Shown: positions 28,680 to 64,000, numbered from the stretch's first letter. The stretch is DNA of 64,000 nt from Escherichia coli (GCF_045037415.1 NZ_CP173438.1), one strand, 5' to 3'. Translations and numbers: made by a program. The notes: generated from the letters alone by a model not told the origin.

Positions 28680-28816
28680 GCCTGATGCACTACGCTTATC
28701 AGGCCTACAAAACCTGTTGAATTTATGGGTTTTGTAGGCTGGATAAGGCGTTTACGCCGCATCCGGCATTTGAGCAGGATGCCTGATGCGACGCTGATAG
28801 CGTCTTATCAGGCCTA
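28680..28816. repeat. cluster of three REP elements (BIME) downstream of cpxA
   Basis: GCCTGATGCACTACGCTTATCAGGCCTAC, GTAGGCTGGATAAGGCGTTTACGCCGCATCCGGC and GCCTGATGCGACGCTGATAGCGTCTTATCAGGCCTAC. Confidence 0.65.
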
Positions 28817-42472: not shown

Positions 42473-45400
42473 ATGCAGGTCAGCAGAAGGCAGTTCTTTA
42501 AGATCTGCGCTGGCGGTATGGCAGGCACCACGGCAGCGGCACTGGGTTTTGCACCCAGCGTAGCACTCGCGGAAACCCGGCAGTATAAACTGCTGCGCAC
42601 CCGCGAAACCCGTAATACCTGCACCTATTGTTCCGTAGGCTGTGGGCTGTTGATGTACAGCCTCGGTGACGGAGCAAAAAACGCCAAAGCATCTATCTTC
42701 CATATCGAAGGTGACCCGGATCACCCGGTCAACCGCGGAGCACTTTGTCCGAAAGGCGCTGGCCTGGTGGATTTCATCCACTCCGAAAGCCGTCTGAAGT
42801 TTCCGGAATACCGTGCGCCAGGTTCTGATAAATGGCAGCAAATCAGTTGGGAAGAGGCGTTTGATCGCATCGCCAAACTGATGAAAGAAGACCGCGATGC
42901 AAACTACATTGCGCAAAACGCCGAAGGCGTGACTGTTAACCGCTGGCTCTCCACCGGGATGCTGTGTGCTTCCGCGTCGAGCAACGAAACCGGCTATTTA
43001 ACGCAAAAATTCTCCCGCGCGCTGGGTATGCTCGCGGTCGACAACCAGGCGCGTGTCTGACACGGACCAACGGTAGCAAGTCTTGCTCCAACATTTGGTC
43101 GCGGTGCGATGACCAACCACTGGGTCGACATCAAGAATGCCAACCTCGTCGTGGTGATGGGCGGTAACGCCGCTGAAGCTCACCCGGTCGGGTTCCGCTG
43201 GGCGATGGAAGCCAAAATTCACAACGGCGCGAAGCTGATTGTGATCGATCCTCGCTTTACGCGTACAGCGGCGGTGGCTGACTACTATGCCCCTATCCGT
43301 TCCGGTACTGACATTGCTTTCCTGTCAGGCGTATTGCTGTACCTGCTGAACAATGAAAAATTCAACCGCGAATACACCGAAGCCTATACCAACGCTAGCC
43401 TGATCGTGCGTGAGGATTACGGCTTTGAAGATGGCCTGTTCACCGGCTACGACGCGGAAAAACGCAAGTACGATAAGTCCACCTGGACTTACGAACTGGA
43501 CGAAAACGGCTTCGCCAAACGCGATACTACCCTGCAACATCCACGTTGCGTGTGGAACTTGCTGAAACAGCACGTTTCCCGCTACACGCCAGATGTGGTT
43601 GAAAACATCTGCGGTACGCCAAAAGACGCATTCCTGAAAGTCTGCGAATACATCGCAGAGACCAGTGCTCACGATAAAACTGCCTCGTTCCTTTACGCCC
43701 TCGGCTGGACGCAACACTCCATCGGTGCGCAGAACATCCGTACGATGGCGATGATCCAGTTGCTGCTCGGCAATATGGGGATGGCTGGCGGCGGCGTTAA
43801 CGCCCTGCGCGGTCACTCCAATATTCAGGGGCTGACGGACCTGGGGCTGCTGTCGCAGAGTCTGCCAGGTTACATGACGCTGCCAAGCGAGAAGCAGACC
43901 GATCTGCAAACTTACCTTACCGCCAACACGCCGAAACCACTGCTGGAAGGCCAGGTTAACTACTGGGGCAACTACCCGAAATTCTTCGTCTCTATGATGA
44001 AGGCCTTCTTTGGTGATAAAGCGACGGCGGAAAATAGCTGGGGCTTTGACTGGTTGCCGAAGTGGGATAAAGGCTACGACGTCCTGCAATACTTCGAGAT
44101 GATGAAAGAGGGCAAGGTCAATGGCTATATCTGCCAGGGCTTTAACCCTGTTGCCTCATTCCCGAACAAAAACAAAGTGATCGGCTGTCTGTCGAAGCTG
44201 AAATTCCTCGTGACTATCGACCCGCTGAACACTGAAACCTCTAACTTCTGGCAGAACCACGGTGAACTGAACGAAGTTGACTCGTCGAAGATCCAGACCG
44301 AAGTGTTCCGTCTGCCATCGACCTGCTTCGCGGAAGAGAACGGTTCAATCGTTAACTCTGGTCGCTGGTTGCAGTGGCACTGGAAAGGTGCGGACGCCCC
44401 GGGGATTGCGCTGACTGATGGCGAGATCCTCTCCGGTATCTTCCTGCGCTTGCGCAAGATGTATGCCGAACAGGGTGGCGCGAACCCGGACCAGGTGCTG
44501 AACATGACCTGGAACTACGCCATCCCGCATGAGCCGAAGTCGGAAGAAGTGGCGATGGAGAGCAACGGTAAGGCGCTGGCCGATATTACCGATCCGGCAA
44601 CCGGTGCGGTTATTGTCAAGAAAGGCCAACAACTTAGCTCGTTCGCTCAACTGCGCGATGACGGTACAACCTCCTGTGGCTGCTGGATTTTCGCCGGTAG
44701 CTGGACGCCAGAAGGCAACCAGATGGCGCGTCGTGATAACGCCGATCCGTCTGGCCTCGGTAACACGCTGGGCTGGGCATGGGCATGGCCGCTTAACCGC
44801 CGCATTCTGTATAACCGCGCCTCCGCAGATCCGCAGGGTAACCCGTGGGATCCGAAGCGTCAGTTGCTGAAATGGGACGGCACTAAGTGGACCGGCTGGG
44901 ATATTCCGGACTACAGCGCAGCGCCTCCGGGCAGTGGCGTCGGGCCGTTTATCATGCAGCAGGAAGGCATGGGGCGTCTGTTTGCCCTCGATAAGATGGC
45001 GGAAGGTCCGTTCCCGGAACACTACGAGCCGTTTGAAACGCCGCTGGGAACTAACCCGCTGCATCCAAACGTTATCTCGAATCCGGCGGCGCGTATCTTT
45101 AAAGACGATGCCGAAGCATTGGGGAAAGCCGATAAGTTCCCGTATGTCGGAACCACCTATCGTCTGACCGAGCACTTCCACTACTGGACCAAACACGCGC
45201 TGTTGAACGCGATTTTGCAACCAGAGCAGTTTGTGGAAATCGGGGAGTCGCTGGCGAATAAACTTGGCATTGCCCAGGGCGATACTGTGAAAGTCTCCTC
45301 CAACCGTGGCTATATCAAAGCCAAAGCGGTAGTGACCAAACGTATTCGCACGCTGAAAGCAAACGGCAAAGATATCGATACCATCGGTATTCCGATTCAC

Positions 45401-48709: not shown

Positions 48710-49558
48710 ATGAATAAAAACGAATCAATTTCTTACACCGAAATGCAAAAATTTTTTGCCAGAGAAATTAAGGAAGTAGGCGGTAGGCCCATCACTTCTA
48801 AGAATTTAGAGTTAAGTCTGCTACCCATTCACGCCAGGGAAAACCTTTCTGCGCCAGAAATGCCGTGGTATACCGAAGTTAATGATATCTATATGGAGTT
48901 CAGACGCTCACCATTCTGGATGGTTGCCGGTTATGTATTCCTGGGATTTATGCTTTCACTACTTTCCATCTCGATATTATCTATTGTTGCATTCTCATTT
49001 TATGAGATGGGCTTTAATAGTGACTTGTTATTTCTGTATCTACTTGCATTTGTGCTTGGCTGTTTTATATTACCTGGCGCTGCAAAAATTGCTTTTTTCA
49101 CGCCACATTATCTTCCTATAAGATTTAACAGAAAAACACAAAAAATTTATGTTTCAGATTTAATTATTGAAGGCAATATCTTCTTTGGAAAAATAAAACT
49201 CACTTTTCATGAATATGACTGGAAAGATGTTGAAGGTTGGGAGGTGAGTAGACATTTCAGTAAAAGTATGCCTTACAATGGATTACATCTGGTAGTTAAT
49301 AGAGAAAATGATATAAATGCACTGCGACAGACACGCGTTTATACAACCCGTGCACCGTGGAGTGCACAAGAAATGGCAAGACAAAAGAACTATATCCCCC
49401 AAATATGGCTTTATTGCCATAATTATATGGCTTATAAAACTGTGTCTGGTGCAAAGAACAAACCACAACCATTTATTTTTTTAAGAAACAATTGGCTATT
49501 TAAATGGCCAAAAGAAATGGATAAACGTTCCAGAAGCTCAAAGATACTGTCTGAATAA
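48710..49558 (+). CDS. hypothetical membrane protein (two adjacent TM helices), unknown family
   Basis: 282-aa ORF in low-GC DNA (first 200 nt of the ORF about 38% GC by hand count); TM hairpin FWMVAGYVFLGFMLSLLSISILSIVAFSF / LLFLYLLAFVLGCFILPGAAKIAFF; purine-rich SD-like stretch upstream; no family recognised. Confidence 0.6.
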   Translation: MNKNESISYTEMQKFFAREIKEVGGRPITSKNLELSLLPIHARENLSAPEMPWYTEVNDIYMEFRRSPFWMVAGYVFLGFMLSLLSISILSIVAFSFYEMGFNSDLLFLYLLAFVLGCFILPGAAKIAFFTPHYLPIRFNRKTQKIYVSDLIIEGNIFFGKIKLTFHEYDWKDVEGWEVSRHFSKSMPYNGLHLVVNRENDINALRQTRVYTTRAPWSAQEMARQKNYIPQIWLYCHNYMAYKTVSGAKNKPQPFIFLRNNWLFKWPKEMDKRSRSSKILSE

Positions 49559-49582
49559 GCATAATAATGAAGGATTTCGACT

Positions 49583-50323
49583 ATGATTAACAAACTTACT
49601 CTTCCTTGGCCGGTATTATTTTTAGAATTTTTTGTGCGAGAAGTTGCCTTTAAGGGTAAGGGAATTGTTCGTTCTACATTACCAGCAGATGCCCATTTTT
49701 ATACCGGTGGGTCAAAAGCCCTGCGTTATCACCTACAACCAGGAAACCAATGGCCAAACTATATATGGCATGATGATATAGGTGATATTGTACCGTTTCC
49801 TCTACCCTCACTTCCGCTTACATTTACCGCTAACCGACCCACATTTAATTCCAGAGAATTAGCGGATAAATGGATGAAGGATAATATTCATACCGCTGTC
49901 ATCATGGCGGGGGAATTTCTGTCTGCTAATGAATGGATTCGCCGCAAAAACCAGCTTAAAACTAGTGTACACCCTGCGTCAGTTGCTTCTTTCGCACCCT
50001 ATGGCTTTAACATTAACCAGTGTGATGACGATGGCAATCTTTGGACTAATTTCCCACGTCCCCACATCAAATTAAAAATCGCACCAGGAAAAACAGCTTG
50101 TTTTCTCTGCCGCCGGGAAGAGCTTTTATTTGGTTATGATGAAGCACATAATCACTACCAGCCGAATCTTAATCTGGTTTTATTTGTGAAAAATCATGGG
50201 TTGCATAAGGATGTTTACCTAAAATCTCATGACGATAAAAGTGAATACGATAGCAGAATATTATGTAACGAAAAATTTACCACTTATGATTTCCGTAAAA
50301 ACCGGTCCAGATACAGCTTTTGA
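49583..50323 (+). CDS. hypothetical soluble protein, unknown family
   Basis: 246-aa ORF starting 24 nt after the upstream gene with a GAAGGA Shine-Dalgarno; AT-rich codon usage; no motif recognised. Confidence 0.6.
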   Translation: MINKLTLPWPVLFLEFFVREVAFKGKGIVRSTLPADAHFYTGGSKALRYHLQPGNQWPNYIWHDDIGDIVPFPLPSLPLTFTANRPTFNSRELADKWMKDNIHTAVIMAGEFLSANEWIRRKNQLKTSVHPASVASFAPYGFNINQCDDDGNLWTNFPRPHIKLKIAPGKTACFLCRREELLFGYDEAHNHYQPNLNLVLFVKNHGLHKDVYLKSHDDKSEYDSRILCNEKFTTYDFRKNRSRYSF

Positions 50324-50507
50324 TAGTTTATTATCCTGGATGATATCAGGAGCGATATCTATAAAGTTTATGCATTCCCTGTGATCAATTTTTCCTGTTA
50401 GTGAGCACAAATTCAATCTGATTGATGCCAGAATAAAGGCATCTGGCATGTTGATTTTATGTTCCAGAATGACAAAACATTGCTGTTAATAAGCACGACT
50501 CTTTTTG

Positions 50508-50726
50508 TCATTCCTCATGCCACTTACCCTGTTCTTCAACACCAACTACCTCACCCCTTTGCCTGTCACTTTTTGCCTTACGCACCGGAAATTGCTGACG
50601 CTCCAGATATTGCTCTACCGCTTCGCGTAAAATTGCAGAGCGCGAAACCTTACGCCAGCCCCGAAGCTTGTTCAGCCGTTTAATTGCCTCTTCTGATAAA
50701 TGAAGAAAAACCGTATTCATCGCCAT
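50508..50726 (-). CDS. ribbon-helix-helix (CopG-like) DNA-binding protein, yiiE-like
   Basis: MAMNTVFLHLSEEAIKRLNKLRGWRKVSRSAILREAVEQYL; 72 aa from the ATG at 50726 (alternatives 50720, 50753). Confidence 0.75.
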   Translation of the reverse strand: MAMNTVFLHLSEEAIKRLNKLRGWRKVSRSAILREAVEQYLERQQFPVRKAKSDRQRGEVVGVEEQGKWHEE

Positions 50727-50819
50727 TGCCACCACCTTACATATATTACTCATTAATGTATGTGCGAAAATTACGCCGAAAAATCATTTAAAAAAAGCGG
50801 ATTTTTGCATGTCGTTTTG

Positions 50820-50866
50820 TTTTTGCGAGACTGCATCCAAAGATAATGTAACAGTTGCAGTTATTT
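50820..50866. promoter_or_regulatory. conserved promoter/operator-like motif, copy B
   Basis: TTTTTGCGAGACTGCATCCAAAGATAATGTAACAGTTGCAGTTATTT; shares TTTTTGCGAG and ATGTAACAGTTGCAGTTATT with copy A. Confidence 0.4.
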
Positions 50867-51122
50867 CAATTGTTACTCAAAAATGGTTTATTACTTTTAA
50901 TTAAGCGGGGGCACATCTACAGAAAAGAAACAACAAATAATAAGGATGAATTATGGATGCTATAAATATTTTATATTCAAGAATATTTTTTTGATTGGGT
51001 CTTCATTTGCTTCATCAGGATGGTGTACCCGAAAAAGTCAGCAGCTTTACCGCACCAGGGGTTAAGGTGAAATCTACCATTCATAACGACCGGTCAGTGC
51101 CGCACCAACCGGTCTTTAATTG

Positions 51123-51401
51123 TTAGTAGTAGTAAATTTGTGGATAACAGTCCGGGAACCAGACGATTCCTTCCGGATCATCCCCCTGCATTACCCGATG
51201 ACATTGGCGTCGATCATCTGCGCGACGGCGAAGCGTAGTATAGAGCCGCTTCCATTCATGATCGCCCGGTGTACTGTAGTTTACCCAACAATCCATTGAA
51301 GGGTGACGCCATTTACCTGTAAGTGTTGGGATCCCTGAATGCTTATGCGGCTTCGCTTTACCATTACGATCCCTATCTTTACGCGTATTAAACGTGGACA
51401 T
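51123..51401 (-). CDS. hypothetical small basic Cys/His-rich protein
   Basis: 92-aa ORF; no recognisable family; may be a fragment. Confidence 0.3.
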   Translation of the reverse strand: MSTFNTRKDRDRNGKAKPHKHSGIPTLTGKWRHPSMDCWVNYSTPGDHEWKRLYTTLRRRADDRRQCHRVMQGDDPEGIVWFPDCYPQIYYY

Positions 51402-51462
51402 TTTTAGTCTCCTGTTAAGAGTTCTAAAAATGTGCTTCCTTAAAATAGTTCATCATTTTCCC

Positions 51463-51675
51463 TTAATTCGCATAGCGTGCTTTTGCACGAATTTCCGATA
51501 CGCGGGGACCATTATGATAGCGTCGATGCCCACACATCCAACAAGAACAAATACAGGGAGTACGAAAGCAAATACCTGATGCTTTTTTGCTTCCATCGCC
51601 TGCAGTGCGATAACGACAGCGGATTTTTTTTAATCGCACCATATGATGGCGACGTTCAGCACGATTACGGGTCAT
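51463..51675 (-). CDS. hypothetical small basic Cys-rich protein (possible zinc ribbon)
   Basis: 70-aa ORF with CxC...CxxC spacing (CICSCWMCGH); no recognisable family. Confidence 0.3.
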   Translation of the reverse strand: MTRNRAERRHHMVRLKKIRCRYRTAGDGSKKASGICFRTPCICSCWMCGHRRYHNGPRVSEIRAKARYAN

Positions 51676-51759
51676 AGCAAAACTCCTGAACAGGCGGCAC
51701 TATGCCGCTTTCATAGGAGTTCTGAATGCTGGTGCTTTCTGTATGGCATAACCATGCCT

Positions 51760-52050
51760 CTAACGGTTAAGTGCTTGCAGCACATGTTGCGGATCATTGG
51801 CAATCGCTCGCAGCAAAGCCTTTGCAGGCCCGGTCGGTGAACGTCGCCCCTGCTCCCAGTTACGCAACGTGTCTACGCTTACGGAAATAAGATCGGCAAA
51901 TTTAGATTGTGACAACCCTGAAGCGCGGCGTATTTCTTTGATTTTCATAGCATCAACTTCAAAAGTCCGTGAAGGCTGTCGCGTTCCTTCAATAATTTCA
52001 TTCATCTGGGCCATGCTGTGAGTCAACCGCTCAAAAAGTGCCTTATCCAT
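51760..52050 (-). CDS. HTH (XRE-type) antitoxin, HigA-like
   Basis: 96 aa; helix-turn-helix IRRASGLSQSKFADLISVSVDTLRNWEQGRR; ATG directly abuts the upstream toxin stop (TAA-ATG). Confidence 0.75.
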   Translation of the reverse strand: MDKALFERLTHSMAQMNEIIEGTRQPSRTFEVDAMKIKEIRRASGLSQSKFADLISVSVDTLRNWEQGRRSPTGPAKALLRAIANDPQHVLQALNR

Positions 52051-52362
52051 TTACCACCTCGTATTTAACAACCGGAGCATTGCTTTTTCCTGGGGAGACA
52101 GATCATCTTTAATACCCTTACGATAAATAAGCAGTAATCTGATCTCATAATGTTTAACCTGATGAAAGTAAATAACCCTGACACCAGCACGTTTCCCCTT
52201 TCCTCCTGAGACCCATCGAACCTTTCTTAACCCACCAGTTTCAGGTATTACCTCACCATAGTCAGGATTCAAGGCCAGGAAAAACTGAAAACGACTGAAT
52301 TCATCGTCGTTCAGCAGTTTTTGAACATCTTCAGTAAAAATTTCCGTTTCGATGAAGAGCAT
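52051..52362 (-). CDS. RelE/ParE-superfamily toxin, HigB-like (toxin-first arrangement)
   Basis: 103 aa, MLFIETEIFTEDVQKLLNDDEF...GGLRKVRW...GVRVIYFH...IRLLLIYRKG; size, basic patches and coupling to a downstream HTH partner. Confidence 0.7.
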   Translation of the reverse strand: MLFIETEIFTEDVQKLLNDDEFSRFQFFLALNPDYGEVIPETGGLRKVRWVSGGKGKRAGVRVIYFHQVKHYEIRLLLIYRKGIKDDLSPQEKAMLRLLNTRW

Positions 52363-52482
52363 AATTATACGCCATTGGCTTAGAGCAACAATCCTTTTTG
52401 TACGTCATTGACGTACCATTGAAACCACTAGCTTACTGATAGTGCTCCAGCAAAACCACGTCTCTGCCGGGTTTGTCTTTAC

Positions 52483-52504
52483 ATTTGCGAGGCGCTTTCC
52501 AGAT
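52483..52504. promoter_or_regulatory. conserved promoter/operator-like motif, partial copy C
   Basis: ATTTGCGAGGCGCTTTCCAGAT, one mismatch to the first half of copy A. Confidence 0.35.
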
Positions 52505-52578
52505 TTTTCACGCCCGTGAATTTCCCTGTATCCATCCAGCAAAAACGGGTGTATAAAACTGTACATTCATACAGCAAA

Positions 52579-53499
52579 ATGAGTTCTACTATGGCACTGG
52601 AAAAAGGAATTGCAGAGTTAGTCGAAGAGTTTATCGCTGCGGGTCGCCCCTCATCGCGCCAACAAAGTATTACGCAGCGCAGAGAGGGCTATATCGCCAG
52701 CGCTGTCCTTGCGGGTGAGACAGAAACGCGGGTAGATATTCAGACTATCGAACTTGAAGGGATGACCTTACGAATAGTGTCACCGCTGAATGCCCCGACA
52801 TTACTCCCGACGATAATTTATTACTACGGTGGCTGTTTTGTTAGCGGCGGGTTCGCAACTCACGACAACCAGCTGCGCCAGTTAGCCTATTACGGGCAAT
52901 GTCGGGTTATTGCCGTCCAGTATCGGCTGGCACCGGAACATACTTTCCCCGCCGCCCATGATGATGCACAACGAGGTGCAGAATTAGTCCGGCAACACGC
53001 CGAACGACTCGGCGTTGATAAACAACGAATAACTCTTGCCGGTGACAGTGCGGGAGGGCATCTGGCGCTGGTAACTGCTTTGCGATTGAAGCGTGCTGGC
53101 GAGTGGCAACCAGCACAACTCATCTTAATTTATCCTATGCTTGATGCGACTGCGCATTTCGAAAGCTACATACGCAATGGTCACGATTACATCATCACAC
53201 GCGACACTTTACTGAGCGGCTTTGAGATGTACCTGCCAGGCATTGAACGCAGGCATCCTGAAGCCAGCCCTATTTGGCGCAATGATTTCAATGGCTTGCC
53301 ACCTGTACATATCATTACCGCTGAATACGACCCACTTTGCGATGAAGGTGAAGCGTTGTATCACCGCATGACAGGGCAAGGAGTGCAATGCACCTGCCAA
53401 CGCTACCTTGGCGTTATCCACGGATTTTTTCAGTTAGGTGGTATCAGTGAGGCTGCGCGATCGGCGTTACGGGATGTTGCCTGGAGAGCGGGAAGGTAA
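52579..53499 (+). CDS. alpha/beta-hydrolase-fold esterase/lipase
   Basis: oxyanion-hole region YYYGGCF and nucleophile elbow GDSAGG; ORF track starts at a GTG (52516) inside the conserved motif, ATG at 52579 or 52591 preferred. Confidence 0.7.
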   Translation: MSSTMALEKGIAELVEEFIAAGRPSSRQQSITQRREGYIASAVLAGETETRVDIQTIELEGMTLRIVSPLNAPTLLPTIIYYYGGCFVSGGFATHDNQLRQLAYYGQCRVIAVQYRLAPEHTFPAAHDDAQRGAELVRQHAERLGVDKQRITLAGDSAGGHLALVTALRLKRAGEWQPAQLILIYPMLDATAHFESYIRNGHDYIITRDTLLSGFEMYLPGIERRHPEASPIWRNDFNGLPPVHIITAEYDPLCDEGEALYHRMTGQGVQCTCQRYLGVIHGFFQLGGISEAARSALRDVAWRAGR

Positions 53500-53562
53500 C
53501 TCCGGACCAGGGCCCAGAAAAGGTTTTCAGATTGAAAACCTTTTCAGTCAAGTAAAACGCCC

Positions 53563-54986: not shown

Positions 54987-55855
54987 GGTTCGTCGTCTTC
55001 TTCTTGTTCAGCAGCTTGTTTTAATTTGCGGTATTCCCCGAGAGTGACAGTAATTTCCGCGCCAAGCAAGACGATACACCATGTCCAGTAGACCCAAACA
55101 AAGAGAATGGGGATCACCGCCAGCACGCCGTAAATGAGCTGATATGACGGGAACATGGTGATATAAAGCGCGAAACCTTTCTTTCCTGCTTCGAACAGGA
55201 GCGCGGCGACAAACGCGCCGACAATCGCGTCGCGGTTAGGTACGCGAATGGTAGGAACGATGCTGTACAGCAACCAAAAGGAGATCCACGATAACAGCAG
55301 CGGAAAAATACGCAGCACGTTGTCGATGACAGTATTGAGATCGCTCGCCCAGCGCAGGGAAAGCAGATAGGAGCTGATCGCCAGACTGGCCCCTGCCAGC
55401 AGCGGCCCCAGCGTTAAAATCATCCAGTACACGGCAAACGAGTAAATTTTGGGTCGCGCTCGTTTACTGCGCCAGATGGTATTCAACGCGCTATCGATGG
55501 AGTACATCAACAATAACGCCGTGACGATCAGCCCGCACGCCCCGACGGCGGTCATTTTGTTGGAATTGGCGACAAACTGTTCGATATATCGCTGGATAAC
55601 ATCGCCAGTAGCAGGCAGAAAGTTGGCAAAAATAAAGTGACGCAACTGAATGCTGACGTCGGAAAACATGGGAAAAGCGGCGAAAAGCGCAAAAACAACG
55701 GCAACCAGCGGCACTAATGAGAGCAACGACACATAGGCAAGGTTACCTGCCAGGGTTGTCATGTTGTCCTCATCAATGCGTTGCCAGAGTAGTTTTAGCC
55801 AGGCCCATAGTGGACGGGTACGATGCCTGGCTTTGTCCTGAATGGTTTTTAGCAT
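54983..55855 (-). CDS. yihY: YihY/BrkB-family inner membrane protein
   Basis: 290-aa polytopic membrane protein. Confidence 0.88.
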
Positions 55856-56448
55856 AACACCTTCGCGAAATAGTCCGGGATGGTGGTTTTATCTTTCACC
55901 AGAATACTAGTAATGCCTAGCCGATTAGCTCCTTCTATATTATCGGCGTTATCGTCGAAAAAGACCGTATCGTCTGGTGAAAAACCTTCTGCCCGCAAAA
56001 CATGCTGATAAATTCGTGCTTCAGGTTTGCGCATACCCAAGTCTTGCGACAGATAGATATGGTCAGCAGCATCACGGATTTCCGGGTATTCCTCCGGCCA
56101 GAAGGTAGTATGCAGGCGGTTAGTATTGGAAAGCACCACCACGCGATGCCCCTGCTCACGCAGTTTATGCATGATGGCGATCACTTCCGGTCGTAGCGCA
56201 ACAAATACCGCCTGCCAACCGTGGGAGAACTGCTCATAGCTTAGCGGCAGGGCCATCTCATGACACAGTGCCTCTGCGAACGCTTCGTCGCTAATTTCCC
56301 CACGCTCATGCTGATGAAACGCCTCGCCCATGTGGAAACTCTTCTTAAGCGTAGCCAGTGGAACACGCGTTAAATCGCTCCAGGCCCCCAGCACACGGTT
56401 AAAGTCGATATCGACAATCACATTACCTAAATCAAAGATATAGAGCAT
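55849..56448 (-). CDS. yihX: HAD-family sugar phosphatase YihX
   Basis: internal start [15 protein letters not shown] gives 199 aa with the HAD motif I DxG. Confidence 0.88.
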
Positions 56449-56588
56449 TTTTGCCTCCTTTCGCGCCACAAGAAATTAACTGTAGCGGGAAAGGATGGGT
56501 TTGGCTATGTGGCAATAAGGGTAATCTTGTGATGCTGATTGCGAAAAAGCAGAGTAATTTCACTGGCTTTTTCGCAATAGATGAATGG

Positions 56589-57521
56589 TTAAGATTCAGG
56601 TGTAAATTGCCAACGAGTTTCGATGACCAGCGGCTTATCTGGTGTCACAAATTCCGGCGTTAGATTTATTGCGTTAGGTGCCTGAGTCAGCGGGTTAATA
56701 CAGGTGGCATCGGGCTGTTTATCAAATACCACCAGACTGTTTGCAGAAGAGGTCATGGTCATCGCGAGTTTACCAGGCCACAGTAACTTAACCTTCACCC
56801 CGTCATAAAAACCAAAACAGTCATCCCAGGGACCAACTTGAGGAGAGATACGATTTCCAGTTGGCAGTTCATCACTACCCGCTTCTTCTTGCCAGTCCGC
56901 ATCAAAAAGCACCTGCAACGATTCTGTATTTTGCGGAGTCAGCTTTTTCGCAAACCACGGATGCCAGCCTGCGGAGGCCGGGAATGTATCGGCATATGAA
57001 TGGACTTCCAGTTGCAAAACCAGCGCATCGTTCTCCAGCAAAAAAGTCTGAATCACTTCCCCTTGCCAGGGCCACGGTGAAGTCAGGGGCATACGTAAAG
57101 TCAGGGAATCTGCTGTTTTGTCGATGATTTCCCACGTTGAGTAACAAGCCATACCATGCAACGCATGTGGTGGTTTATTGGCGGGTAAAGAATAACATTG
57201 CCCACCAGCATTCAGCGTCGCATTCCCCAGTCGCCCTGCCCACGGCACCATTGGGAAACAGCCATACTGAAAAGCTCTGCGCTGCGGCTGCCATTGGCGT
57301 AATACTTCAGAACCAAATGCCTTTAACGAGGTTATCCTGGCACCATCATGCGGATAAATCTGCAGGTGAATATTGCCTTTTTCCAGCGTCACTAACTCTC
57401 CTACAGGCCCAGGCCATGGCGCGTCAAACGCCTGTTGTAGCGCCAGGTAATGCTCGTTTTTTCGTTCAGTTTTCATGAGATTGTTCCCTGATGTAGCGGT
57501 AAGAAGCGGTTTCTTGTTCAT
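56589..57521 (-). CDS. aldose 1-epimerase-family protein, YihR-like
   Basis: GWHPWF and CFPMVPWAGR motifs resemble mutarotase-family YihR; start ambiguous (57521 gives 310 aa, 57476 has the better SD); either start overlaps the stop of the upstream MFS gene. Confidence 0.7.
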   Translation of the reverse strand: MNKKPLLTATSGNNLMKTERKNEHYLALQQAFDAPWPGPVGELVTLEKGNIHLQIYPHDGARITSLKAFGSEVLRQWQPQRRAFQYGCFPMVPWAGRLGNATLNAGGQCYSLPANKPPHALHGMACYSTWEIIDKTADSLTLRMPLTSPWPWQGEVIQTFLLENDALVLQLEVHSYADTFPASAGWHPWFAKKLTPQNTESLQVLFDADWQEEAGSDELPTGNRISPQVGPWDDCFGFYDGVKVKLLWPGKLAMTMTSSANSLVVFDKQPDATCINPLTQAPNAINLTPEFVTPDKPLVIETRWQFTPES

Positions 57522-58815
57522 CGGTTGGCTCAATCAGCCAGACGCAAACAAAGGAAAGAACTGAGACAGCAAATAAAAACAGAGCGACATACCACGGTTT
57601 TCCTCCCCCTAGCGCCAGCAAACTTGAGGCGATAAGGGGGCTTAGTCCGCCAAGAATCGCGGAAAATTGATAAGCAAAAGAAAGGCCGGTATATCGTACT
57701 TTGGTACCGAACATGCGGGTGAAAAGTGTTGGCTGCACGGCAAACATCATCGTCGGACCTAAGTTGTAGCCAAGGATCATACTGCACCAGATGATGAGCG
57801 TACTTTTGCTATCCAGTAATAAGAAGAAAGGAAACGCGAACAGGACACAAAACCCTGCTCCCGACAAATACAGACTTTTTTGACCTATACGATCTGATAA
57901 CCATCCAACCAATGGACAACTGAAAATACCGATCGCCGAGGCAATCAACATACCCGTCAGGGGAATATCTCGCGACAATGCTAATTGGCTGGAAATATAG
58001 ACAATACCAAAGGCGTTAATAATATTAGAGGAGACACTTTCCGCCAGCCTCGCACCCAGTGCCAATAAAATATTTCGTGGATGTTTTTTGAATAATTCAA
58101 TCAACGGAGGAACGGACTTTTCTTTATTATTCGTCGTTTTTTGCTTTTGAAAATCCAGCGTTTCTTCGGTATGCAGGCGGATAAACAGCCCAACGATCAA
58201 CATCACCGCAGAAAGCCAAAACGGAATGCGCCATCCCCAGGAGAGAAACTGCTCCGAAGTAAGAAAATGGTTACAGAGAGCAAAAATACCGGTTGCCAGC
58301 ATAATACCCACAGACGCAGCCGTTTGCGGGAGTGAACCTAAAAATCCGCGTCGGGATTCGGGCGCTGATTCTATGGTCATCAATGCCGCTCCGCCGTACT
58401 CGCCACCAAGACCAAAGCCCTGAATTAAACGTAGCACCATTAATATGAGCGGTGCCCAGATCCCAATTTCCTGATACGTCGGAATAAAACCAATCAAAAA
58501 TGTGGAGCAACCGACAATAGCCAACGTCCAGATAAGCGTTATTTTTCGCCCTATTTTATCGCCAAAATGACCAAAGACGATGCCACCTAAAGGACGAGTC
58601 AGAAAACCGACACCAAAGGTCGCAAAGGAAGCTATAAGACCTATAAAAGGATCGCTGTCTGGATAAAACAGCGGTGCAAATACCAGTCCTGCTGCCGTGC
58701 CAAAAATAAAGAAGTCATACCATTCCATTAACGCGCCTGCGAAACTGCCCATAACGACACGTCTCATGGCTTTACCGGAAAGCCCTTCACGCGGTGCGGG
58801 TAACTTTTCAGACAT
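57466..58815 (-). CDS. MFS transporter, metabolite:H+ symporter (MHS) type
   Basis: 449 aa, about 12 TM; EWYDFF motif and GDKIGRK loop typical of ProP/KgtP/ShiA-type carriers. Confidence 0.8.
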   Translation of the reverse strand: MSEKLPAPREGLSGKAMRRVVMGSFAGALMEWYDFFIFGTAAGLVFAPLFYPDSDPFIGLIASFATFGVGFLTRPLGGIVFGHFGDKIGRKITLIWTLAIVGCSTFLIGFIPTYQEIGIWAPLILMVLRLIQGFGLGGEYGGAALMTIESAPESRRGFLGSLPQTAASVGIMLATGIFALCNHFLTSEQFLSWGWRIPFWLSAVMLIVGLFIRLHTEETLDFQKQKTTNNKEKSVPPLIELFKKHPRNILLALGARLAESVSSNIINAFGIVYISSQLALSRDIPLTGMLIASAIGIFSCPLVGWLSDRIGQKSLYLSGAGFCVLFAFPFFLLLDSKSTLIIWCSMILGYNLGPTMMFAVQPTLFTRMFGTKVRYTGLSFAYQFSAILGGLSPLIASSLLALGGGKPWYVALFLFAVSVLSFVCVWLIEPTDEQETASYRYIREQSHEN

Positions 58816-58913
58816 AATTTTCCTCTCCTGGTAGGCGAGAAATCTGGGATACGAACCACTAAACGTGGGCAGTTTGAATTAATGCGCATCGGCTTAAACC
58901 GATGCGCATTAAA

Positions 58914-60347
58914 TTATTTCTTCAATTCAGCCAGAACCTCTGCGTCCTCAGCATCAACATTTGCACCCAGTGGTTCCCAATTAATCAATACACAGGTCAG
59001 GAATCCCAGGAATGGCACGATTGCCAACCAGTAAAACGCTTCGGTTTTCAACGCACCCCACAGCATCGGCCAGAAAATGAGTCCTGCAATTGCCCCTGTG
59101 CGCATAATAGCGCGGGCAAATCCGACCCCAGTAGGGCGAATAGCGGGAGGATAAGAGAGTGTGGCAATGGTCATGCCCAGCCCACCAGGACCCGCTGAAT
59201 GGAAGAAAATAATTGATCCCAATAACCCTAAAGACAGCCAGGGATTAGTCGTTGCCAGTGCGCCTAACGACAGCAATGCTAAGGTCACAACAGCAAATCC
59301 ATACATCGACTGTCGGCGAGTACCCAGTCGTTGGAGAATAAACGAGCCGATCATCCCGCCTGTCACCCCACAAAGGGCATTCACGACGGCAGAACCGGTC
59401 AACGCGCCAGTAAGCCCGCCACTTATTATTCCCGCCAACGTAAGAGGAAGATAAACACCTACGGCGTTATATTGCCACGCCTGCATGGTTGCCACGACAC
59501 AGCCAAGAATGGTGCGTTTGCGGTAACGATCATTAAATAAGATGCCATATCCACCACTGTATTTATTCTCTGCTTTTTCCGAGAATTTCGCTTCTGTTGT
59601 ACCCGATGCCGCAACGCGAGCCTGAACACCATAACGTTTTCCCAGAATGTCGCACGCTTCCTGGTAACGCCCGACGCGTGCGGCCCACATTGCGGATTCA
59701 CCAATAAAGAAGTAACGCAAAATCATGAAGATGACTGCAAAAATAGCTCCGATGAATATTCCGTAACGCCACAATTGTTCTTCAGCGATACCCGACAGAA
59801 GCAGCGGCAAAAGCACCAAATAAACAACGGTTGTCGAAACATACCAGGCCATTTGCCAGAGGTTGACCGACGTTCCGGTTTTCTTCGACGTTGAACCACG
59901 AAGCTCTGCCACGGCATTGGTTGCCAAAGGGAAGTCGATGCCTAAACCAAAGCCCATGATGACGCGGCACACCAGCACCCACCAGATACTGGGAGCAATA
60001 GCTACCGCTGCAGCACCGATGGTGCACAGCCCCATGCCAATAATAAATGCCCGCTTTTGCCCAAAGCGGTTTATTACTCGGTTCGCTAATAAACCGCCAA
60101 TTAACGCGGCGATTAATACTGATGCATTGACGGTTGCAGCAAGACCCGGCGAAATGCCGAATTGAGCGGCAATGTATTTATTACCAAACCCCACCATCGC
60201 CGCCTGGTAGGCATCAATCAATATGCCGCCCAAAGCAATAAAAATAACGCCGATACTGGTGTTGATTGCAGAGTTCTTATTAACAATATCAATTACGTCC
60301 TGTGGCCGACTAATTGAATAAGTTGCAGGACTGGTGATTTGACTCAT
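58914..60347 (-). CDS. MFS transporter, sugar-porter type
   Basis: 477 aa, about 12 TM; NRFGQKR loop. Confidence 0.8.
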   Translation of the reverse strand: MSQITSPATYSISRPQDVIDIVNKNSAINTSIGVIFIALGGILIDAYQAAMVGFGNKYIAAQFGISPGLAATVNASVLIAALIGGLLANRVINRFGQKRAFIIGMGLCTIGAAAVAIAPSIWWVLVCRVIMGFGLGIDFPLATNAVAELRGSTSKKTGTSVNLWQMAWYVSTTVVYLVLLPLLLSGIAEEQLWRYGIFIGAIFAVIFMILRYFFIGESAMWAARVGRYQEACDILGKRYGVQARVAASGTTEAKFSEKAENKYSGGYGILFNDRYRKRTILGCVVATMQAWQYNAVGVYLPLTLAGIISGGLTGALTGSAVVNALCGVTGGMIGSFILQRLGTRRQSMYGFAVVTLALLSLGALATTNPWLSLGLLGSIIFFHSAGPGGLGMTIATLSYPPAIRPTGVGFARAIMRTGAIAGLIFWPMLWGALKTEAFYWLAIVPFLGFLTCVLINWEPLGANVDAEDAEVLAELKK

Positions 60348-60416
60348 CGCAGTGTCCTTTTTAATTGTTGTAGGGTGGCGCTGACGTGACGCAGCGCCAG
60401 ACAGAGATTTAGAAAA

Positions 60417-61427
60417 TCATTCCGGCGCAAATTGCAGCATGACCTTTATGGAGTCATTTTGCTGCGCGCGTTCGAATGCCGCCGCTGCATCCTCAATGGC
60501 AAATAAATCGGTAACCAGTTCACTGGTATCAAACCGCCCATCCGCCAGCCATTCGATAACAGCATCGAAATCTTCAGGGATGTACATGCCAGAGTTGAGC
60601 AAGTCACGCTCGAAACGTTGCATCATCGGTAATGGTATTTCACGCGGCCCACTTGGTACGCCCATGCACACGACGGTGCCTCCGGCATATACACGGGTAC
60701 ATGCATCGTTAAGCGTGGCCTGCGCTGCAACGACATCAATCGCCCCCGTAAATCGCACATCTGCGGCCAGCTCACCTGGTGCCCAAACTTCTGCTGCGCC
60801 CAGTTTTAACGCCAGCGCGCGTTTGGCAGCGTCAGGTTCAATCACGGTAATCTTACCTGCCCCCATAATGCGCAGTGCCTGCACGATGGATAAGCCTATC
60901 GTTCCGGCACCAATCACCAGTACGCTTTCCAGAGAAGCTTTCGGCATTCGGTTAACGCAGTGACGAGCACAAGCCGCCGGTTCGGCAAAGGCCAACACTT
61001 TTAGCGGTAAAGAGGCTGGTGCGACATGGCAATTACGCGCAGGAACAATGTGTTGTGAGCGAGCAAAGCCCGGTGCGCGAAAACCAGCAACCTGCGGTGG
61101 TTCACAAAGATTAAAACGTCCTGCTTTGCAGGCTCGGCATTCCATGCAAGCCATGATGGGATCGACCACAACATGATCGCCCGGCTGTACATTTTTAACG
61201 TCGCTGCCCACTTCCGTAACGCGCGCTGCAATTTCATGACCGGGGACGACAGGCGGTTTGGCAAACGGATGACCGCCTTTCAGAACATGCAGATCCGAAC
61301 CGCATATCCCGTAGAACACGGGCGCAATCCGTACTTCGTGCGGTTTAAGTTGCTGGTGTGGTACTTCAACATATTGAGTGGTGACTTTCCCAATATCTGA
61401 AAATAAAACCTGGGTAATTTTATCCAT
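60417..61427 (-). CDS. zinc-dependent medium-chain alcohol/polyol dehydrogenase
   Basis: GICGSDLH and PGHE zinc-ligand motifs; structural-zinc CxxC pair; VIGAGTIG NAD fold. Confidence 0.85.
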   Translation of the reverse strand: MDKITQVLFSDIGKVTTQYVEVPHQQLKPHEVRIAPVFYGICGSDLHVLKGGHPFAKPPVVPGHEIAARVTEVGSDVKNVQPGDHVVVDPIMACMECRACKAGRFNLCEPPQVAGFRAPGFARSQHIVPARNCHVAPASLPLKVLAFAEPAACARHCVNRMPKASLESVLVIGAGTIGLSIVQALRIMGAGKITVIEPDAAKRALALKLGAAEVWAPGELAADVRFTGAIDVVAAQATLNDACTRVYAGGTVVCMGVPSGPREIPLPMMQRFERDLLNSGMYIPEDFDAVIEWLADGRFDTSELVTDLFAIEDAAAAFERAQQNDSIKVMLQFAPE

Positions 61428-61459
61428 TGTTATTCTCCAGAATCGATATCCATAGGGGA

Positions 61460-62347
61460 TTAGCGTTGCGCGATACCTTCATCGACAATTTCAGCCAGCC
61501 GTTGCAAGCGTGGAACGGAGACATCGCGCAGCATGGTTTGTGGATCTTGTGCACCAACAACCGACGCCCAAACCGCTCGTCCAGCCAGGAAGCCCGACGC
61601 ACCACCTTTCATGGCAATACTTACTGCACGGCCAAAAATATCGGCATCAACGCCAGAAGAAAGAATTACCCACGGCATCTTCATCTGATCGTTAAGTTGC
61701 TGACAGGCAGCAAGTAAGGTTTTTTCATCGCCTTTGCCCCCTAATGGCATCTCGGCTTTGTAAAGATCAGCCTCTGTTCCACCAAGCTCTGCGGCGGCGG
61801 CAACAATGGCGCTTTCACGATCAAAGTCCCAACCGCGACGAGGTGGACGCACCACAGGTTCAATAATGCTAACCAGCCCGGCACTACGGCAGCGACGAAC
61901 AAATTTATCAACCATTGCCAGACGTTCCTCTGCGGGTTCATCTTCACGCCAGAGTACAAGTAATTTCATTGCCTTAGCCCCCATTTCACGGGCTTTATGC
62001 GGGTCGACGGACATATCTATTTCAACGCTATCAACCGGGATGCCATTACCTGGGATAAAAAGATCGGCAGCGACAATCAGGCCGCAAGAATTAGCCACAG
62101 CGCCCTGCTCGACTATTTGTTCAAGACAAAATTGTTTATCCGCCAGAACGGCAGAAGCATAAGGAGAAAGGATTCGGGTCGCGGCAACTTTAAAATCGGT
62201 GAGTACACTGTCGGCGATGGGTTTTGGCTGCCCTGCTGCCGCAAACATCAGGCGCATGGCCTCACGCTGATCGACAGCTAACATGGCGAATCCACCACCT
62301 GGGCGGGAGATATCTTTCAGCGTAAATGGGGTGAAGTGGGATGACAT
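61460..62347 (-). CDS. class I aldolase, YihT-like (sulfofructosephosphate / tagatose-bisphosphate aldolase family)
   Basis: 295 aa; [15 protein letters not shown] and [10 protein letters not shown] blocks recalled from YihT/LacD-family aldolases. Confidence 0.78.
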
Positions 62348-62371
62348 AGAAACTCCTGTTAATAGATAAAA

Positions 62372-63250
62372 TTAAAGACCAGCCTGCTGGCGAACCTGAT
62401 TTAGCAGGGCGCTCCAGTCCTGCCGCCCTTTGCCGTCTTGACTTGCTGCGGCGTAATAACTTTCTGCTGCAATCCCCATATTGAGCGGCGCCCCCGTTTT
62501 CCGAGCGACGTCAACTGCAATACGCAGATCTTTCAATGCCAGGTCCACCATGAAGGCGGGAGAAAGATCGCCTTTCAGCACTTTGCCAGGCCAGGTGGTC
62601 GTAAAATGTCCTTTCCCTGCTGCCGTACCACTCATCACCTTAATTGCGACATCAAGATTTAATCCCAGTGACTCACATAACACAGCGGCTTCGGAGGACA
62701 GCGCATTAAGCGCAATGCTCATATAGTTGTTAATTAGCTTCACGCGGATCCCCATTCCTGGGCCACCAGCCTCGACCAGCTCATTACCCATGCACATGAG
62801 AATCGGGCGTGCACGCGCAATCTGCTCATCAGTGCCGCCCGCTAAAATCAGCAATGTGCCATCAATCGCATTCACTGACGTTCTGCCCACGGGGGCGTCC
62901 ATCATATTGATGCCTTTTTCTTGTAATTCCCGTATTAATGCATCGGTCTGTAAGGGATGAATAGTCGACATATCAATCACTAACGCGTCAGATGAAACAG
63001 TTTCACAGACGCCTTTTTCCCCCAACAGCACCTGTCGAACAATGTCCCCATTGGGAAGCATAGTGATGATAAATTCAGCGCTTGCTGCCGCTTCCGCTGG
63101 GGTTTGTGCCGCAGTGGCCCCCTGCGTAACTAGCGCATCGACGGCCTGTGTATTGACATCAAATACCTGTAATGAATGCCCTTTTTGCAATAGATTGTTA
63201 GCCATTGGGCTACCCATCTGCCCCAGCCCGAGAAATGCAATGGTTGCCAT
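62372..63250 (-). CDS. NAD(P)-dependent 3-hydroxyacid/aldehyde reductase, YihU-like (HIBADH family)
   Basis: ORF track starts at 63451; internal start [21 protein letters not shown] at 63250 gives 292 aa with a Rossmann GLGQMG. Confidence 0.8.
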
Positions 63251-63422
63251 GAATACTCTCCTGTCTGACATTGACAAAATAATGACAATTGAAAATTCGT
63301 TTTCGTCTGTTTTTGAGCATATTTGTAATTTATGTTCAAAAACACGACACGCATCACTAATTTGATCATTTGTGTCATTTAAATTGACCAAAGACGACAA
63401 AATTAAACAGGACAAGACAAAT

Positions 63423-64000
63423 ATGACCAGAATTGCATGCGTGGGTATCACAGTTCAGGACAGAATTTATTCTTTGCCCACTCTGCCGGAGGGTGGCGGG
63501 AAATATCAGGCAAATCATTATCTTGAGATTGGTGGCGGCCCGGCAGCAACAGCCGCTGTTGCAATCGCAAAGCTTGGCGTGGAGGTTGATTTCATCGGTC
63601 GCGTCGGCGATGACAGTTGTGGAAATACCTTACTTGCAGAACTTGAGGGTTGGGGCGTCAATACCGCATTTTGCCGCCGATATCCTAACGCCCGTTCGTC
63701 GCAATCAGCGATCCTCGTTGATCAGCATGGCGAACGGATTATCGTTAATTATCCAAGTCCTGATCTCGGTACTGATGCCGAATGGTTAGAAGCGATCGAT
63801 TTCTCTCGTTATGATCTGATTCTGGCCGATGTTCGCTGGCATAGCGGTACTGAAAAAGCATTCTCGCTAGCGCGCCTTGCGGGTGTGACAACGCTTTTAG
63901 ACGCCGATATGACACCGCAGGATATTTCTCCACTTGTCGCGCTTGCCGATCACGCCGTGTTCTCAACACCAGGGCTGAAACGCATGACTGGCCTGCAGTC
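63423..64000 (+). CDS. PfkB-family sugar kinase, YihV-like (3' end beyond the window)
   Basis: my translation from the ATG at 63423: [52 protein letters not shown]...; ribokinase-type GG motif; divergent from the reductase gene; runs off the window. Confidence 0.75.

Follow-up and report, generated by a model that had tools for sequence, protein, structure and literature searches.

A candidate sulfo-EMP variant with a dehydrogenase in place of the isomerase at the yih locus of Escherichia coli

Introduction

What is degraded by the products of the gene cassette that many Escherichia coli strains carry between yihX and typA, at the site where strain K-12 harbours its cluster for sulfoglycolysis of the Embden-Meyerhof-Parnas type (sulfo-EMP)? 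The question is raised by a window of 64,000 nucleotides from the E. coli sequence NZ_CP173438.1 (GCF_045037415.1); the window is the whole stretch of DNA that was analysed, and all coordinates are positions within it. The cassette covers positions 56516-64000 and reaches past the window end to about 65200, amounting to 8.7 kb in all (blastn against K-12). Sulfoglycolysis is usually regarded as a collection of pathways that all serve a single sugar, sulfoquinovose. Judged by its gene content, the cassette is a complete and self-contained catabolic unit and not a truncated yih operon. In it the kinase/aldolase/reductase core of the sulfo-EMP pathway is joined to a different entry chemistry, and this combination is old, mobile and widespread. 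We propose a sulfo-EMP variant entered by oxidation dependent on nicotinamide adenine dinucleotide (NAD), in which probably a 6-sulfo-hexitol would be converted to sulfofructose, and we give this proposal an even chance of being correct.

Two forms of the yih locus have been distinguished, one of them a 'short cassette (yihTUVW)' in reversed orientation, which is enriched in pathogens, is present in strain Nissle 1917 and in B2 strains, and encodes a YihW protein with 72% identity to CsqR (Kaznadzey et al. 2025, PMC12608037). This locus is identical to the one studied here, also in its reversed orientation. It was treated in that study as a four-gene form that has lost its sulfoquinovose function and probably no longer serves sulfoquinovose degradation, whereas we found eight genes and conservation across phyla. 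Neither the main text nor the supplement, which lists differentially expressed genes only, mentions the dehydrogenase, the two transporters or the epimerase-like gene, and these four proteins carry only generic names in the databases. Thus, the locus is known as a 'truncated' four-gene form, while the eight-gene module, its cross-phylum conservation and the new substrate that it implies are undescribed in the literature searched.

Results

Replacement of the K-12 yih genes

The gene layout is based on the list of open reading frames (ORFs) and on the RefSeq annotation of E. coli SK1144, whose sequence is identical over the region; indeed, positions 56449-64000 match SK1144 and many genomes of sequence type (ST) 131 at 100%. 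Six genes on the minus strand and one divergent gene on the plus strand lie within positions 56589-64000, separated by operon-like gaps of 24-98 nt and one overlap. Gene order, strands and family assignments agree with those given in a preliminary description of this DNA that had been made from the sequence alone. Compared to K-12, the left flank shows 97-98% nucleotide identity up to about position 56515 (position 12067 of our locus sequence L001), and on the right side identity restarts at L001 20753, 54 bp beyond the typA stop codon. The 8.7 kb in between stand in place of 15.2 kb of K-12 sequence extending from yihL to csqR. Of the flanking proteins, the glucose-1-phosphatase YihX (55849-56448, minus strand), which forms the conserved left flank outside the cassette, is 97% identical to its K-12 counterpart and TypA 100%. 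The sole DNA similarity to K-12 within the cassette is confined to the part resembling yihT-W and is inverted relative to the flanks (blastn). Because the identity of this part amounts to only 65-67%, the cassette is, as far as sequence comparison can tell, an old separate lineage at the same site and not the product of a recent deletion.

By BLASTP, no cassette protein matched YihS, YihQ, YihO, YihP, OmpL or YihL/M/N of K-12, which bears out the absence of yihS, yihQ and of YihO/YihP transporters of the glycoside-pentoside-hexuronide (GPH) type noticed earlier. The zinc-dependent alcohol dehydrogenase (Zn-ADH) and two transporters of the major facilitator superfamily, here designated MFS_A and MFS_B, were all without a match among the K-12 proteins. 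The idea that yihS or yihQ might lie just outside the window was rejected as well. In SK1144 the kinase gene (298 aa) is followed by a gene for a DeoR/GlpR regulator and directly after it by typA; transferred to our coordinates, the kinase gene ends at about 64319 and the regulator gene spans about 64359-65147, both past the window. The preliminary description was thus right in placing no DeoR regulator on the yihX side, but such a regulator does exist on the typA side, outside the window.

A hairpin (56539-56582; TTGCGAAAAAGC ... GCTTTTTCGCAA) is located just 3′ of the stop codon of the epimerase-like gene and beside the left recombination breakpoint at about 56515. It has no T-run and therefore is not a classic terminator. 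An Rfam search gave no match inside the cassette.

Enzymes of the lower pathway

Three cassette proteins are homologues of the K-12 enzymes for the lower sulfo-EMP pathway: a YihV-like sulfofructose kinase of the PfkB family (63423-64000, plus strand, 192 of 298 codons inside the window; 67% identity), a YihT-like class I sulfofructose-1-phosphate (SFP) aldolase (61460-62347, minus strand; 67%) and a YihU-like sulfolactaldehyde reductase of the beta-hydroxyacid dehydrogenase type (62372-63250, minus strand; 72%). The regulator is 72% identical to CsqR. The sulfonate pocket of YihV is formed by K27, N109 and R138, with D13 and S95 contacting sugar hydroxyls and D244 acting as catalytic base; in YihT the pocket comprises R253 and Ala26 (through a water molecule) together with the Schiff-base residue K193, and in YihU it comprises N174, S178 and R123 (Sharma et al. 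2021, PMC8006165). All of these published pocket and catalytic residues are kept in the cassette proteins. The kinase has D13, K27, S95, N109, R138, D162, G243 and D244 and hence the full K27-N109-R138 triad. In the aldolase the Schiff-base lysine K197 as well as R257, S230/S231 and A30 correspond to K193, R253, S226, S227 and A26 of YihT, and the protein matches the SFP aldolase structures 7AG1, 7AG7 and 1TO3 with E values of 1e-121 to 1e-124. The reductase retains R123, K171, N174 and S178 and reached 583 bits on the NCBIfam sulfolactaldehyde reductase equivalog NF012005 (cut-off 348). As indicated by these residues, the E. coli lower pathway is sulfonate-specific. The isomerase that serves to recognise sulfo-EMP clusters (YihS, PF07221, or SqvD) is missing, as no YihS homologue is encoded in the cassette.

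A conserved module without isomerase

With a query of 7.5 kb and a coverage of at least 80%, the cassette was detected in 1325 of 5426 complete E. coli genomes, about a quarter, usually at ≥99% identity and with all eight ORFs intact. Carriers include ST131 strains, Nissle 1917 and Shigella, and members of the corresponding database clusters also stem from Shigella and Atlantibacter. Beyond these, the Zn-ADH belongs to a tight family of orthologues (55-90% identity) found in Edaphovirga, Leminorella, Buttiauxella, Jejubacter, Telmatospirillum, Rhodopseudomonas, Rhodovastum, Pleomorphomonas, Streptomyces, Vibrio and a metagenome-assembled genome (MAG) of Propionibacteriaceae. The same gene set surrounds it in Rhodopseudomonas palustris BisB18, Streptomyces marincola and Vibrio rhodolitus.

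A scan with one genome per species yielded 28 loci with Zn-ADH orthologues at 56-98% identity, which were probed with all cassette proteins and all K-12 Yih proteins within 10 kb. Their hosts, many of which are gut, plant or insect associates, are Escherichia, Citrobacter, Phytobacter, Mixta, Enterobacter, Erwinia, Trabulsiella, Edaphovirga, Leminorella, Budvicia, Tenebrionibacter, Pantoea, Sutterella, Succinivibrionaceae, Propionivibrio, Roseospira, Pleomorphomonas, Telmatospirillum, Vibrio and the Propionibacteriaceae MAG. At every one of the 28 loci the Zn-ADH gene adjoins the gene for MFS_B and an aldolase gene is present; MFS_A and the epimerase-like gene occur in 27, the exception being a contig end. 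The PfkB kinase, the reductase of the beta-hydroxyacid dehydrogenase type and the DeoR regulator were found wherever the contig reaches; the one exception is Propionivibrio, for which the search, at the thresholds used, returned no kinase. Homologues of YihS, YihQ, YihO, YihP and OmpL were found within 10 kb of none of the 28 loci. According to this gene-content comparison, a widespread module exists whose constant core is made up of the Zn-ADH, both MFS transporters and the epimerase-like protein. In several Citrobacter species and in an Escherichia species the module is located at the same typA-yihX site, and some of them retain yihLMN.

The aldolase slot is filled by enzymes of different descent. 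Class I YihT-like enzymes occupy it at 20 loci, with 63-80% identity to each other, 63-69% to K-12 YihT, and K193 and R253 in all of them. Class II enzymes of the SqiA type were found at five loci; the Vibrio enzyme scored 365 and 352 bits against the characterised SFP aldolases HpSqiA (8Q58) and YaSqiA (8Q57), versus 246 against AgaY. At three loci a more distant class II enzyme is encoded after the kinase. Since class I and class II SFP aldolases fill one slot, SFP is the predicted intermediate, and the non-orthologous DISPLACEMENTS across the loci also point to a sulfonate as the end product. Three types of kinase were observed as well. Enterobacterales, Vibrio and Telmatospirillum have YihV-like enzymes that contain the K-N-R triad; a second type shares about 44% identity with the cassette kinase, and a third type (about 30%) in Alphaproteobacteria and Actinobacteria is without the triad. 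SqiA orthologues, as found in the modules of Vibrio, Leminorella, Budvicia and some Citrobacter, are also the class II aldolases of published hybrid sulfo-EMP clusters (Sharma et al. 2023, PMC10665668). The sulfo-EMP1 and sulfo-EMP2 gene sets of that study are defined with an isomerase (YihS or SqvD), whereas the Zn-ADH modules have none; aldolases outside sulfo-EMP gene groupings were dropped from the survey.

More distant Zn-ADH homologues (42-45% identity) are encoded in actinomycete operons together with a PfkB kinase, a YihT-like aldolase and an MFS_A-like transporter. In one Streptomyces a TauE-family sulfonate/sulfite exporter is encoded between aldolase and Zn-ADH, and an aldehyde dehydrogenase replaces the reductase and MFS_B. 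An arrangement of this kind would be predicted for oxidation of sulfolactaldehyde to sulfolactate followed by export, a course taken by known variants of sulfoglycolysis. The minimal set kept down to 42-45% Zn-ADH identity consists of MFS_A, Zn-ADH, kinase and an SFP-type aldolase.

Some Citrobacter genomes show further variation. Citrobacter sp. NCU1 carries two versions of the module (L020, L031), one combining a YihV-like kinase with a class II aldolase similar to SqiA, the other with a kinase of 45% identity and a distant class II aldolase after the epimerase-like gene. In Citrobacter sp. R56 an inserted gene for a 912-aa autotransporter-like protein (L008 15360-18098) separates the epimerase-like gene from yihX, and L009 has a similar gap at this place. 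Apart from this autotransporter, which is unrelated to the pathway, no additional genes, and no extra pathway genes, were found between the epimerase-like gene and yihX in Citrobacter.

The dehydrogenase

The Zn-ADH (60417-61427, minus strand) is a medium-chain dehydrogenase of the polyol dehydrogenase type, as judged by its zinc ligands and by its nearest relatives of solved structure. The ligands of the catalytic zinc (C42/H64/E65/E149), the cysteines of the structural zinc (Cys94/97/100/108) and the GxGxxG motif (G173/G175/G178) are invariant across 34 orthologues, and the acidic residue E197 at the position for NAD specificity is nearly invariant; these are the features of the polyol dehydrogenase branch. 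The protein stays below every NCBIfam equivalog cut-off (best 165 bits versus 376). Its nearest relatives are RspB (4ilk), the whitefly ketose reductase, sorbitol dehydrogenases, GatD, L-arabinitol 4-dehydrogenase and L-idonate 5-dehydrogenase (IdnD). RspB is the closest one with a solved structure, with an identity of about 35-40% as estimated by eye from the printed alignment, and pipelines of the Joint Genome Institute (JGI) name members of the family 'L-gulonate 5-dehydrogenase'. Mapping of the substrate pocket onto alignments with sorbitol dehydrogenase and ketose reductase was given up as the loops are too different, and no sulfonate-binding role is claimed for the family-specific residues R117 and R271.

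Relatives of this kind oxidise the secondary hydroxyl beside the terminal CH2OH of an acyclic polyol. The far end of several of their substrates is anionic and bears a carboxylate (L-gulonate, L-idonate, L-galactonate) or a phosphate (galactitol-1-phosphate). L-gulonate is D-glucitol with a carboxylate at C6, and D-fructuronate is the carboxylate analogue of sulfofructose. HiGulD is presumably a member of the same Zn-ADH family; it oxidises L-gulonate at C5 to D-fructuronate (PMC5788505). Because the minimal conserved set consists of MFS_A, Zn-ADH, kinase and aldolase, the Zn-ADH is by elimination the predicted entry enzyme that makes the substrate of the kinase.

In Paracoccus wurundjeri growing on sulfofucose, a Zn-ADH (PF08240-PF00107, MDP0926266) of an organosulfonate cluster rises in abundance and shows no oxidation of sulfolactaldehyde (bioRxiv 10.1101/2023.08.01.551581). 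Sulfosugar metabolism thus has a further orphan enzyme of the Zn-ADH kind.

Transporters and epimerase-like protein

MFS_A (57466-58815, minus strand) resembles transporters of the metabolite:H+ symporter (MHS) type, with sub-cut-off scores on the NCBIfam models TIGR00883 (407 bits, cut-off 443) and for the shikimate transporter (410 bits, cut-off 538). It accompanies the Zn-ADH even in the distant actinomycete clusters, at 56-58% identity. MFS_B (58914-60347, minus strand) gave weak family matches only and is similar to sugar porters and aromatic acid symporters. It is present together with the reductase at every locus with a close Zn-ADH and absent from two clusters without a YihU-type reductase. 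Since MFS_A belongs to the minimal set and MFS_B travels with the reductase, we infer that MFS_A imports the anionic substrate and that MFS_B exports 2,3-dihydroxypropane-1-sulfonate (DHPS). The 98-nt gap between the two transporter genes contains a near-perfect palindrome with arms of 17 nt (58879-58912; TTAATGCGCATCGGCTT / AAACCGATGCGCATTAA), which could be an internal attenuator, an element for RNA processing or stability, or an insert similar to repetitive extragenic palindromic (REP) sequences.

The last gene of the operon (56589-57476, minus strand) encodes a protein of 295 aa from the aldose-1-epimerase superfamily. It had been labelled YihR-like in the preliminary description; the superfamily fits, but the similarity was overstated, the protein being a distant relative with 27% identity to YihR over 164 aa only. 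The best match of known structure is E. coli YphB (3nre, E values of 1e-11 to 7e-18), and support for the fold is limited to the N-terminal 150 residues or so. In the alignment with YihR, both histidines and the aspartate of the His/His/Asp/Glu tetrad of mutarotases (PF01263) have a counterpart, whereas the glutamate of 'VEP' is replaced by asparagine. This asparagine ('CINP'/'CVNP') occurs in E. coli, Citrobacter, Vibrio, Sutterella and Propionivibrio, glutamate ('CVEP') in alphaproteobacterial and some enterobacterial members, while both histidines and the aspartate are kept throughout the family. The start of the gene overlaps the stop of the MFS_A gene by 11 nt, in R. palustris by 4 nt. 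The actinomycete clusters are devoid of an epimerase-like gene.

Operator and published expression data

The divergent spacer (63251-63422) between the reductase and kinase genes contains an inverted repeat (63308-63321 / 63331-63344; TGTTTTTGA..TCAAAAA), and a near-identical palindrome is found at the equivalent place in the yihU/yihV spacer of K-12. From its position and conservation this palindrome is likely the operator of the DeoR regulator. A simple scan for sigma-70 promoters found none in this spacer, a result to which we give little weight. Binding of YihW to the yihU/yihV spacer was demonstrated by electrophoretic mobility shift assay (EMSA; Kaznadzey et al. 2025, PMC12608037), and the conserved spacer palindrome fits the published cross-binding of the Nissle and K-12 regulators. 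In the same study sulfoquinovose failed to induce the short cassette in Nissle 1917, and the Nissle regulator showed weak operator binding at 37 °C and was released by sulfoquinovose less well than CsqR. An isomerase elsewhere in short-cassette genomes was not reported there. The 'comparable growth on SQ' of Nissle was measured in M9 medium with 5% lysogeny broth (LB) up to an optical density of 0.2-0.3, and the growth claim is confounded by this LB supplement. On sulfoquinovose the glyoxylate shunt, pckA, fbp and ppsA were up in Nissle (PMC12608037). We read this transcriptome as a gluconeogenic or starvation response and not as real use of sulfoquinovose.

Discussion

Taken together, these data suggest the following route. 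An anionic sulfonated C6 compound would be imported by the MHS-like transporter MFS_A and oxidised by the Zn-ADH to sulfofructose or a close sulfo-ketose. That the substrate is a polyol is suggested by the Zn-ADH homologues, which act on polyols; both the substrate and the direction of the reaction are deduced from homology and gene context. The likeliest candidate is a 6-deoxy-6-sulfo-hexitol, i.e. reduced sulfoquinovose (6-deoxy-6-sulfo-D-glucitol or the mannitol epimer), which would be oxidised beside its free CH2OH group, mirroring the conversion of L-gulonate to D-fructuronate and of galactitol-1-phosphate to tagatose-6-phosphate by GatD. The kinase would then phosphorylate sulfofructose to SFP, which the aldolase would cleave to dihydroxyacetone phosphate (DHAP), entering glycolysis, and sulfolactaldehyde. 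Reduction of the latter by the YihU-like enzyme would give DHPS for export by MFS_B.

This route shares much with the sulfo-EMP cluster of K-12 (ompL-yihOPQRSTU / yihV-csqR): the slot between typA and yihX, a kinase, aldolase, reductase and DeoR repressor with 67-72% identity and equal sulfonate-pocket residues, and the divergent promoter layout with a palindromic operator. The cassette lacks the isomerase YihS, the sulfoquinovosidase YihQ, the GPH-type transporters YihO/YihP and OmpL, and YihL/M/N are gone too; on the other hand, it adds the Zn-ADH, the two unrelated MFS transporters and the distant epimerase-like protein. The two clusters further differ in orientation to the flanks, by a DNA identity of 65-67% and, according to the literature, in that the cassette is not induced by sulfoquinovose.

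The proposed entry step resembles that of L-gulonate catabolism (L-gulonate 5-dehydrogenases of the HiGulD or RspB type) in the NAD-dependent oxidation beside a free CH2OH, the anionic far end and the 2-ketose product. In L-gulonate catabolism, however, the far end carries a carboxylate where the proposed substrate would carry a sulfonate, and the route continues through uronate and 2-keto-3-deoxygluconate (KDG), whereas the cassette provides a kinase and a DHAP aldolase. The whole module may be viewed as the sulfonate counterpart of the route from galactitol-1-phosphate via tagatose-6-phosphate to tagatose-1,6-bisphosphate (GatD, a PfkB-type or related kinase, LacD or GatY aldolase). In both, an omega-anionic hexitol would be oxidised by a Zn-ADH to a 6-anionic ketose, which is phosphorylated at C1 and cleaved. 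The parallel extends to the aldolases, as YihT is a relative of LacD and the class II enzymes of the module are relatives of AgaY/KbaY, matching the pair of LacD-type class I and GatY-type class II enzymes. In the galactitol pathway, however, the phosphate is added by the phosphotransferase system (PTS), while the sulfonate of the proposed substrate would be present before uptake by an MFS transporter, and the C3 product would be reduced and exported instead of entering glycolysis.

Several observations weigh against a sulfo-hexitol as the substrate. A full-text search for sulfo-alditol names retrieved no natural 6-sulfo-hexitol on record. In the versions from Alphaproteobacteria and Actinobacteria, identity to YihV and YihU drops to about 30% for the kinase and the reductase, and the K-N-R and N-S residues are missing, so that sulfonate specificity would have to come from the aldolase alone in these groups. 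Furthermore, the conserved epimerase-like gene, which is translationally coupled to the importer gene, suggests a cyclic aldose. Sulfofructose anomerises in seconds, but sulfoquinovose takes hours (half-life 299 min). A genuine mutarotase would thus point to a sulfo-aldose, since sulfofructose anomerises unaided and an acyclic alditol needs no such enzyme; the epimerase-like protein has no place in the proposed scheme and is left unexplained by it. Finally, in the published EMSA sulfoquinovose was able, albeit weakly, to detach the Nissle regulator from its DNA (PMC12608037).

The main rival reading is an alternative route for sulfoquinovose or another 6-sulfo-aldose such as sulforhamnose or sulfofucose, in which the Zn-ADH with cycling NAD(H) would replace YihS. 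The epimerase-like protein would supply the right anomer or the open chain, and the Zn-ADH would reduce C1 and oxidise C2 in a redox-neutral manner. The mutarotase-like gene is found in 27 of the 28 close modules and overlaps the importer gene, and at the slow mutarotation of sulfoquinovose a mutarotase would be useful only for a sulfo-aldose; dissociation of the Nissle regulator from its operator by sulfoquinovose and the many gut- and plant-associated hosts, to which free sulfoquinovose is available, point in the same direction. We nevertheless regard this route as unlikely, because the catalytic glutamate of mutarotases is an asparagine in E. coli, the actinomycete versions manage without an epimerase-like gene, and Nissle shows a starvation or gluconeogenic transcriptome on sulfoquinovose and no induction of the cassette. 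Moreover, to our knowledge no medium-chain dehydrogenase acts as an aldose-ketose isomerase. A different position of the Zn-ADH, downstream in the pathway, is quite improbable. Here the enzyme would interconvert DHPS, sulfolactaldehyde or 2-oxo-3-hydroxypropanesulfonate, and the imported compound would be sulfofructose or a ready-made sulfo-ketose. A polyol 2-dehydrogenase carries out the same diol chemistry that oxidation of DHPS at C2 would require, and in one actinomycete cluster the Zn-ADH is the only candidate enzyme for sulfolactaldehyde in the operon; but the E. coli cassette encodes a bona fide YihU orthologue, the Streptomyces version has its aldehyde dehydrogenase, and the Zn-ADH of the Paracoccus organosulfonate cluster, perhaps unrelated to the present family, did not oxidise sulfolactaldehyde. 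Besides, we know of no case in which free sulfofructose serves as a nutrient.

Loss of sulfonate specificity altogether, with YihTUV-like enzymes that have drifted towards an ordinary hexitol, a deoxy-hexitol or a sugar acid, would agree with the missing pocket residues of the alphaproteobacterial and actinobacterial kinases and reductases and with the broad families of the transporters. It appears very improbable in view of the intact pocket residues in E. coli, the class II SFP aldolase orthologues elsewhere, the TauE exporter in a related cluster and a putative importer resembling the organic-anion MHS type; an ordinary hexitol operon was rejected. Hardly credible at all is a decaying yihTUVW remnant left after loss of yihOPQRS, with the Zn-ADH, MFS and epimerase genes as unrelated passengers. 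This would agree with the description of a truncated form that is not induced by sulfoquinovose and has a weakly binding repressor (Kaznadzey et al. 2025, PMC12608037). The comparative data contradict it, and it was rejected: these genes are found together again in Citrobacter, Vibrio, Rhodopseudomonas, Streptomyces and others with a Zn-ADH of 56-98% identity, DNA identity to K-12 yihT-W is 65-67%, and eight ORFs with operon-like spacing are intact in 1325 genomes.

The preliminary description had proposed that the sulfo-EMP logic is kept, that a dehydrogenase takes the place of the isomerase and that the entry substrate is a different one. In its main thrust this interpretation is supported by the kept pocket residues, the constant isomerase-free module, the kinship of the Zn-ADH to polyol/aldonate 2-/5-dehydrogenases and the lack of induction by sulfoquinovose in Nissle 1917. 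Among the candidate substrates named at that time, the sulfo-polyol is favoured here, and a non-sulfonated deoxy-polyol or common sugar alcohol has become the least likely option.

For the sulfo-hexitol route, 'sulfoquinovose reductase' and 'sulfofructose reductase' retrieved nothing from the full text of the literature, nor did sulfofructose in combination with zinc-dependent alcohol dehydrogenase. A 2026 review on sulfoquinovose catabolism does not list a module with dehydrogenase entry, and papers on adherent-invasive E. coli (AIEC), iModulons and ClbR that mention sulfoquinovose contain nothing on the function of the cassette. A natural reduced sulfoquinovose (6-deoxy-6-sulfo-D-glucitol or a stereoisomer) may exist in gut, soil or marine habitats and feed a dedicated module in about a quarter of the complete E. 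coli genomes and in at least three phyla; we put this forward tentatively, with less than even confidence. If the substrate truly is a sulfo-polyol, the organosulfur cycle holds an unmeasured metabolite and flux. The module would yield DHPS, which gut sulfite reducers of the Bilophila type convert to H2S. The present view also redefines the locus that separates K-12-like strains from short-cassette strains, the latter being enriched in pathogens and including Nissle 1917 according to one study.

Other features of the window

Two further insertions relative to K-12 were noticed. The first (about 48710-50323) has a low GC content, with a value of 0.37 for 50000-50999 at the 3′ end. It carries genes for a hypothetical protein and a DUF6708 protein and is located between the yiiF-like and yiiE-like ribbon-helix-helix genes. 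The second (about 51159-53562), between the yiiE-like gene and fabY, includes a small hypothetical gene, a pair resembling a toxin-antitoxin system that consists of a NadS-family helix-turn-helix (HTH) protein (51760-52050) and an adjoining partner of 103 aa (52051-52362), and an alpha/beta hydrolase gene (about 52591-53499). Rfam matches at 43055-43113, 28737-28814, 37658-37820, 9880-9937 and 5216-5268 are ordinary for the region; the elements comprise a selenocysteine insertion sequence (SECIS) in the formate dehydrogenase gene, three naRNA4 elements (REP-type), a ClpQY promoter element and an L31 leader.

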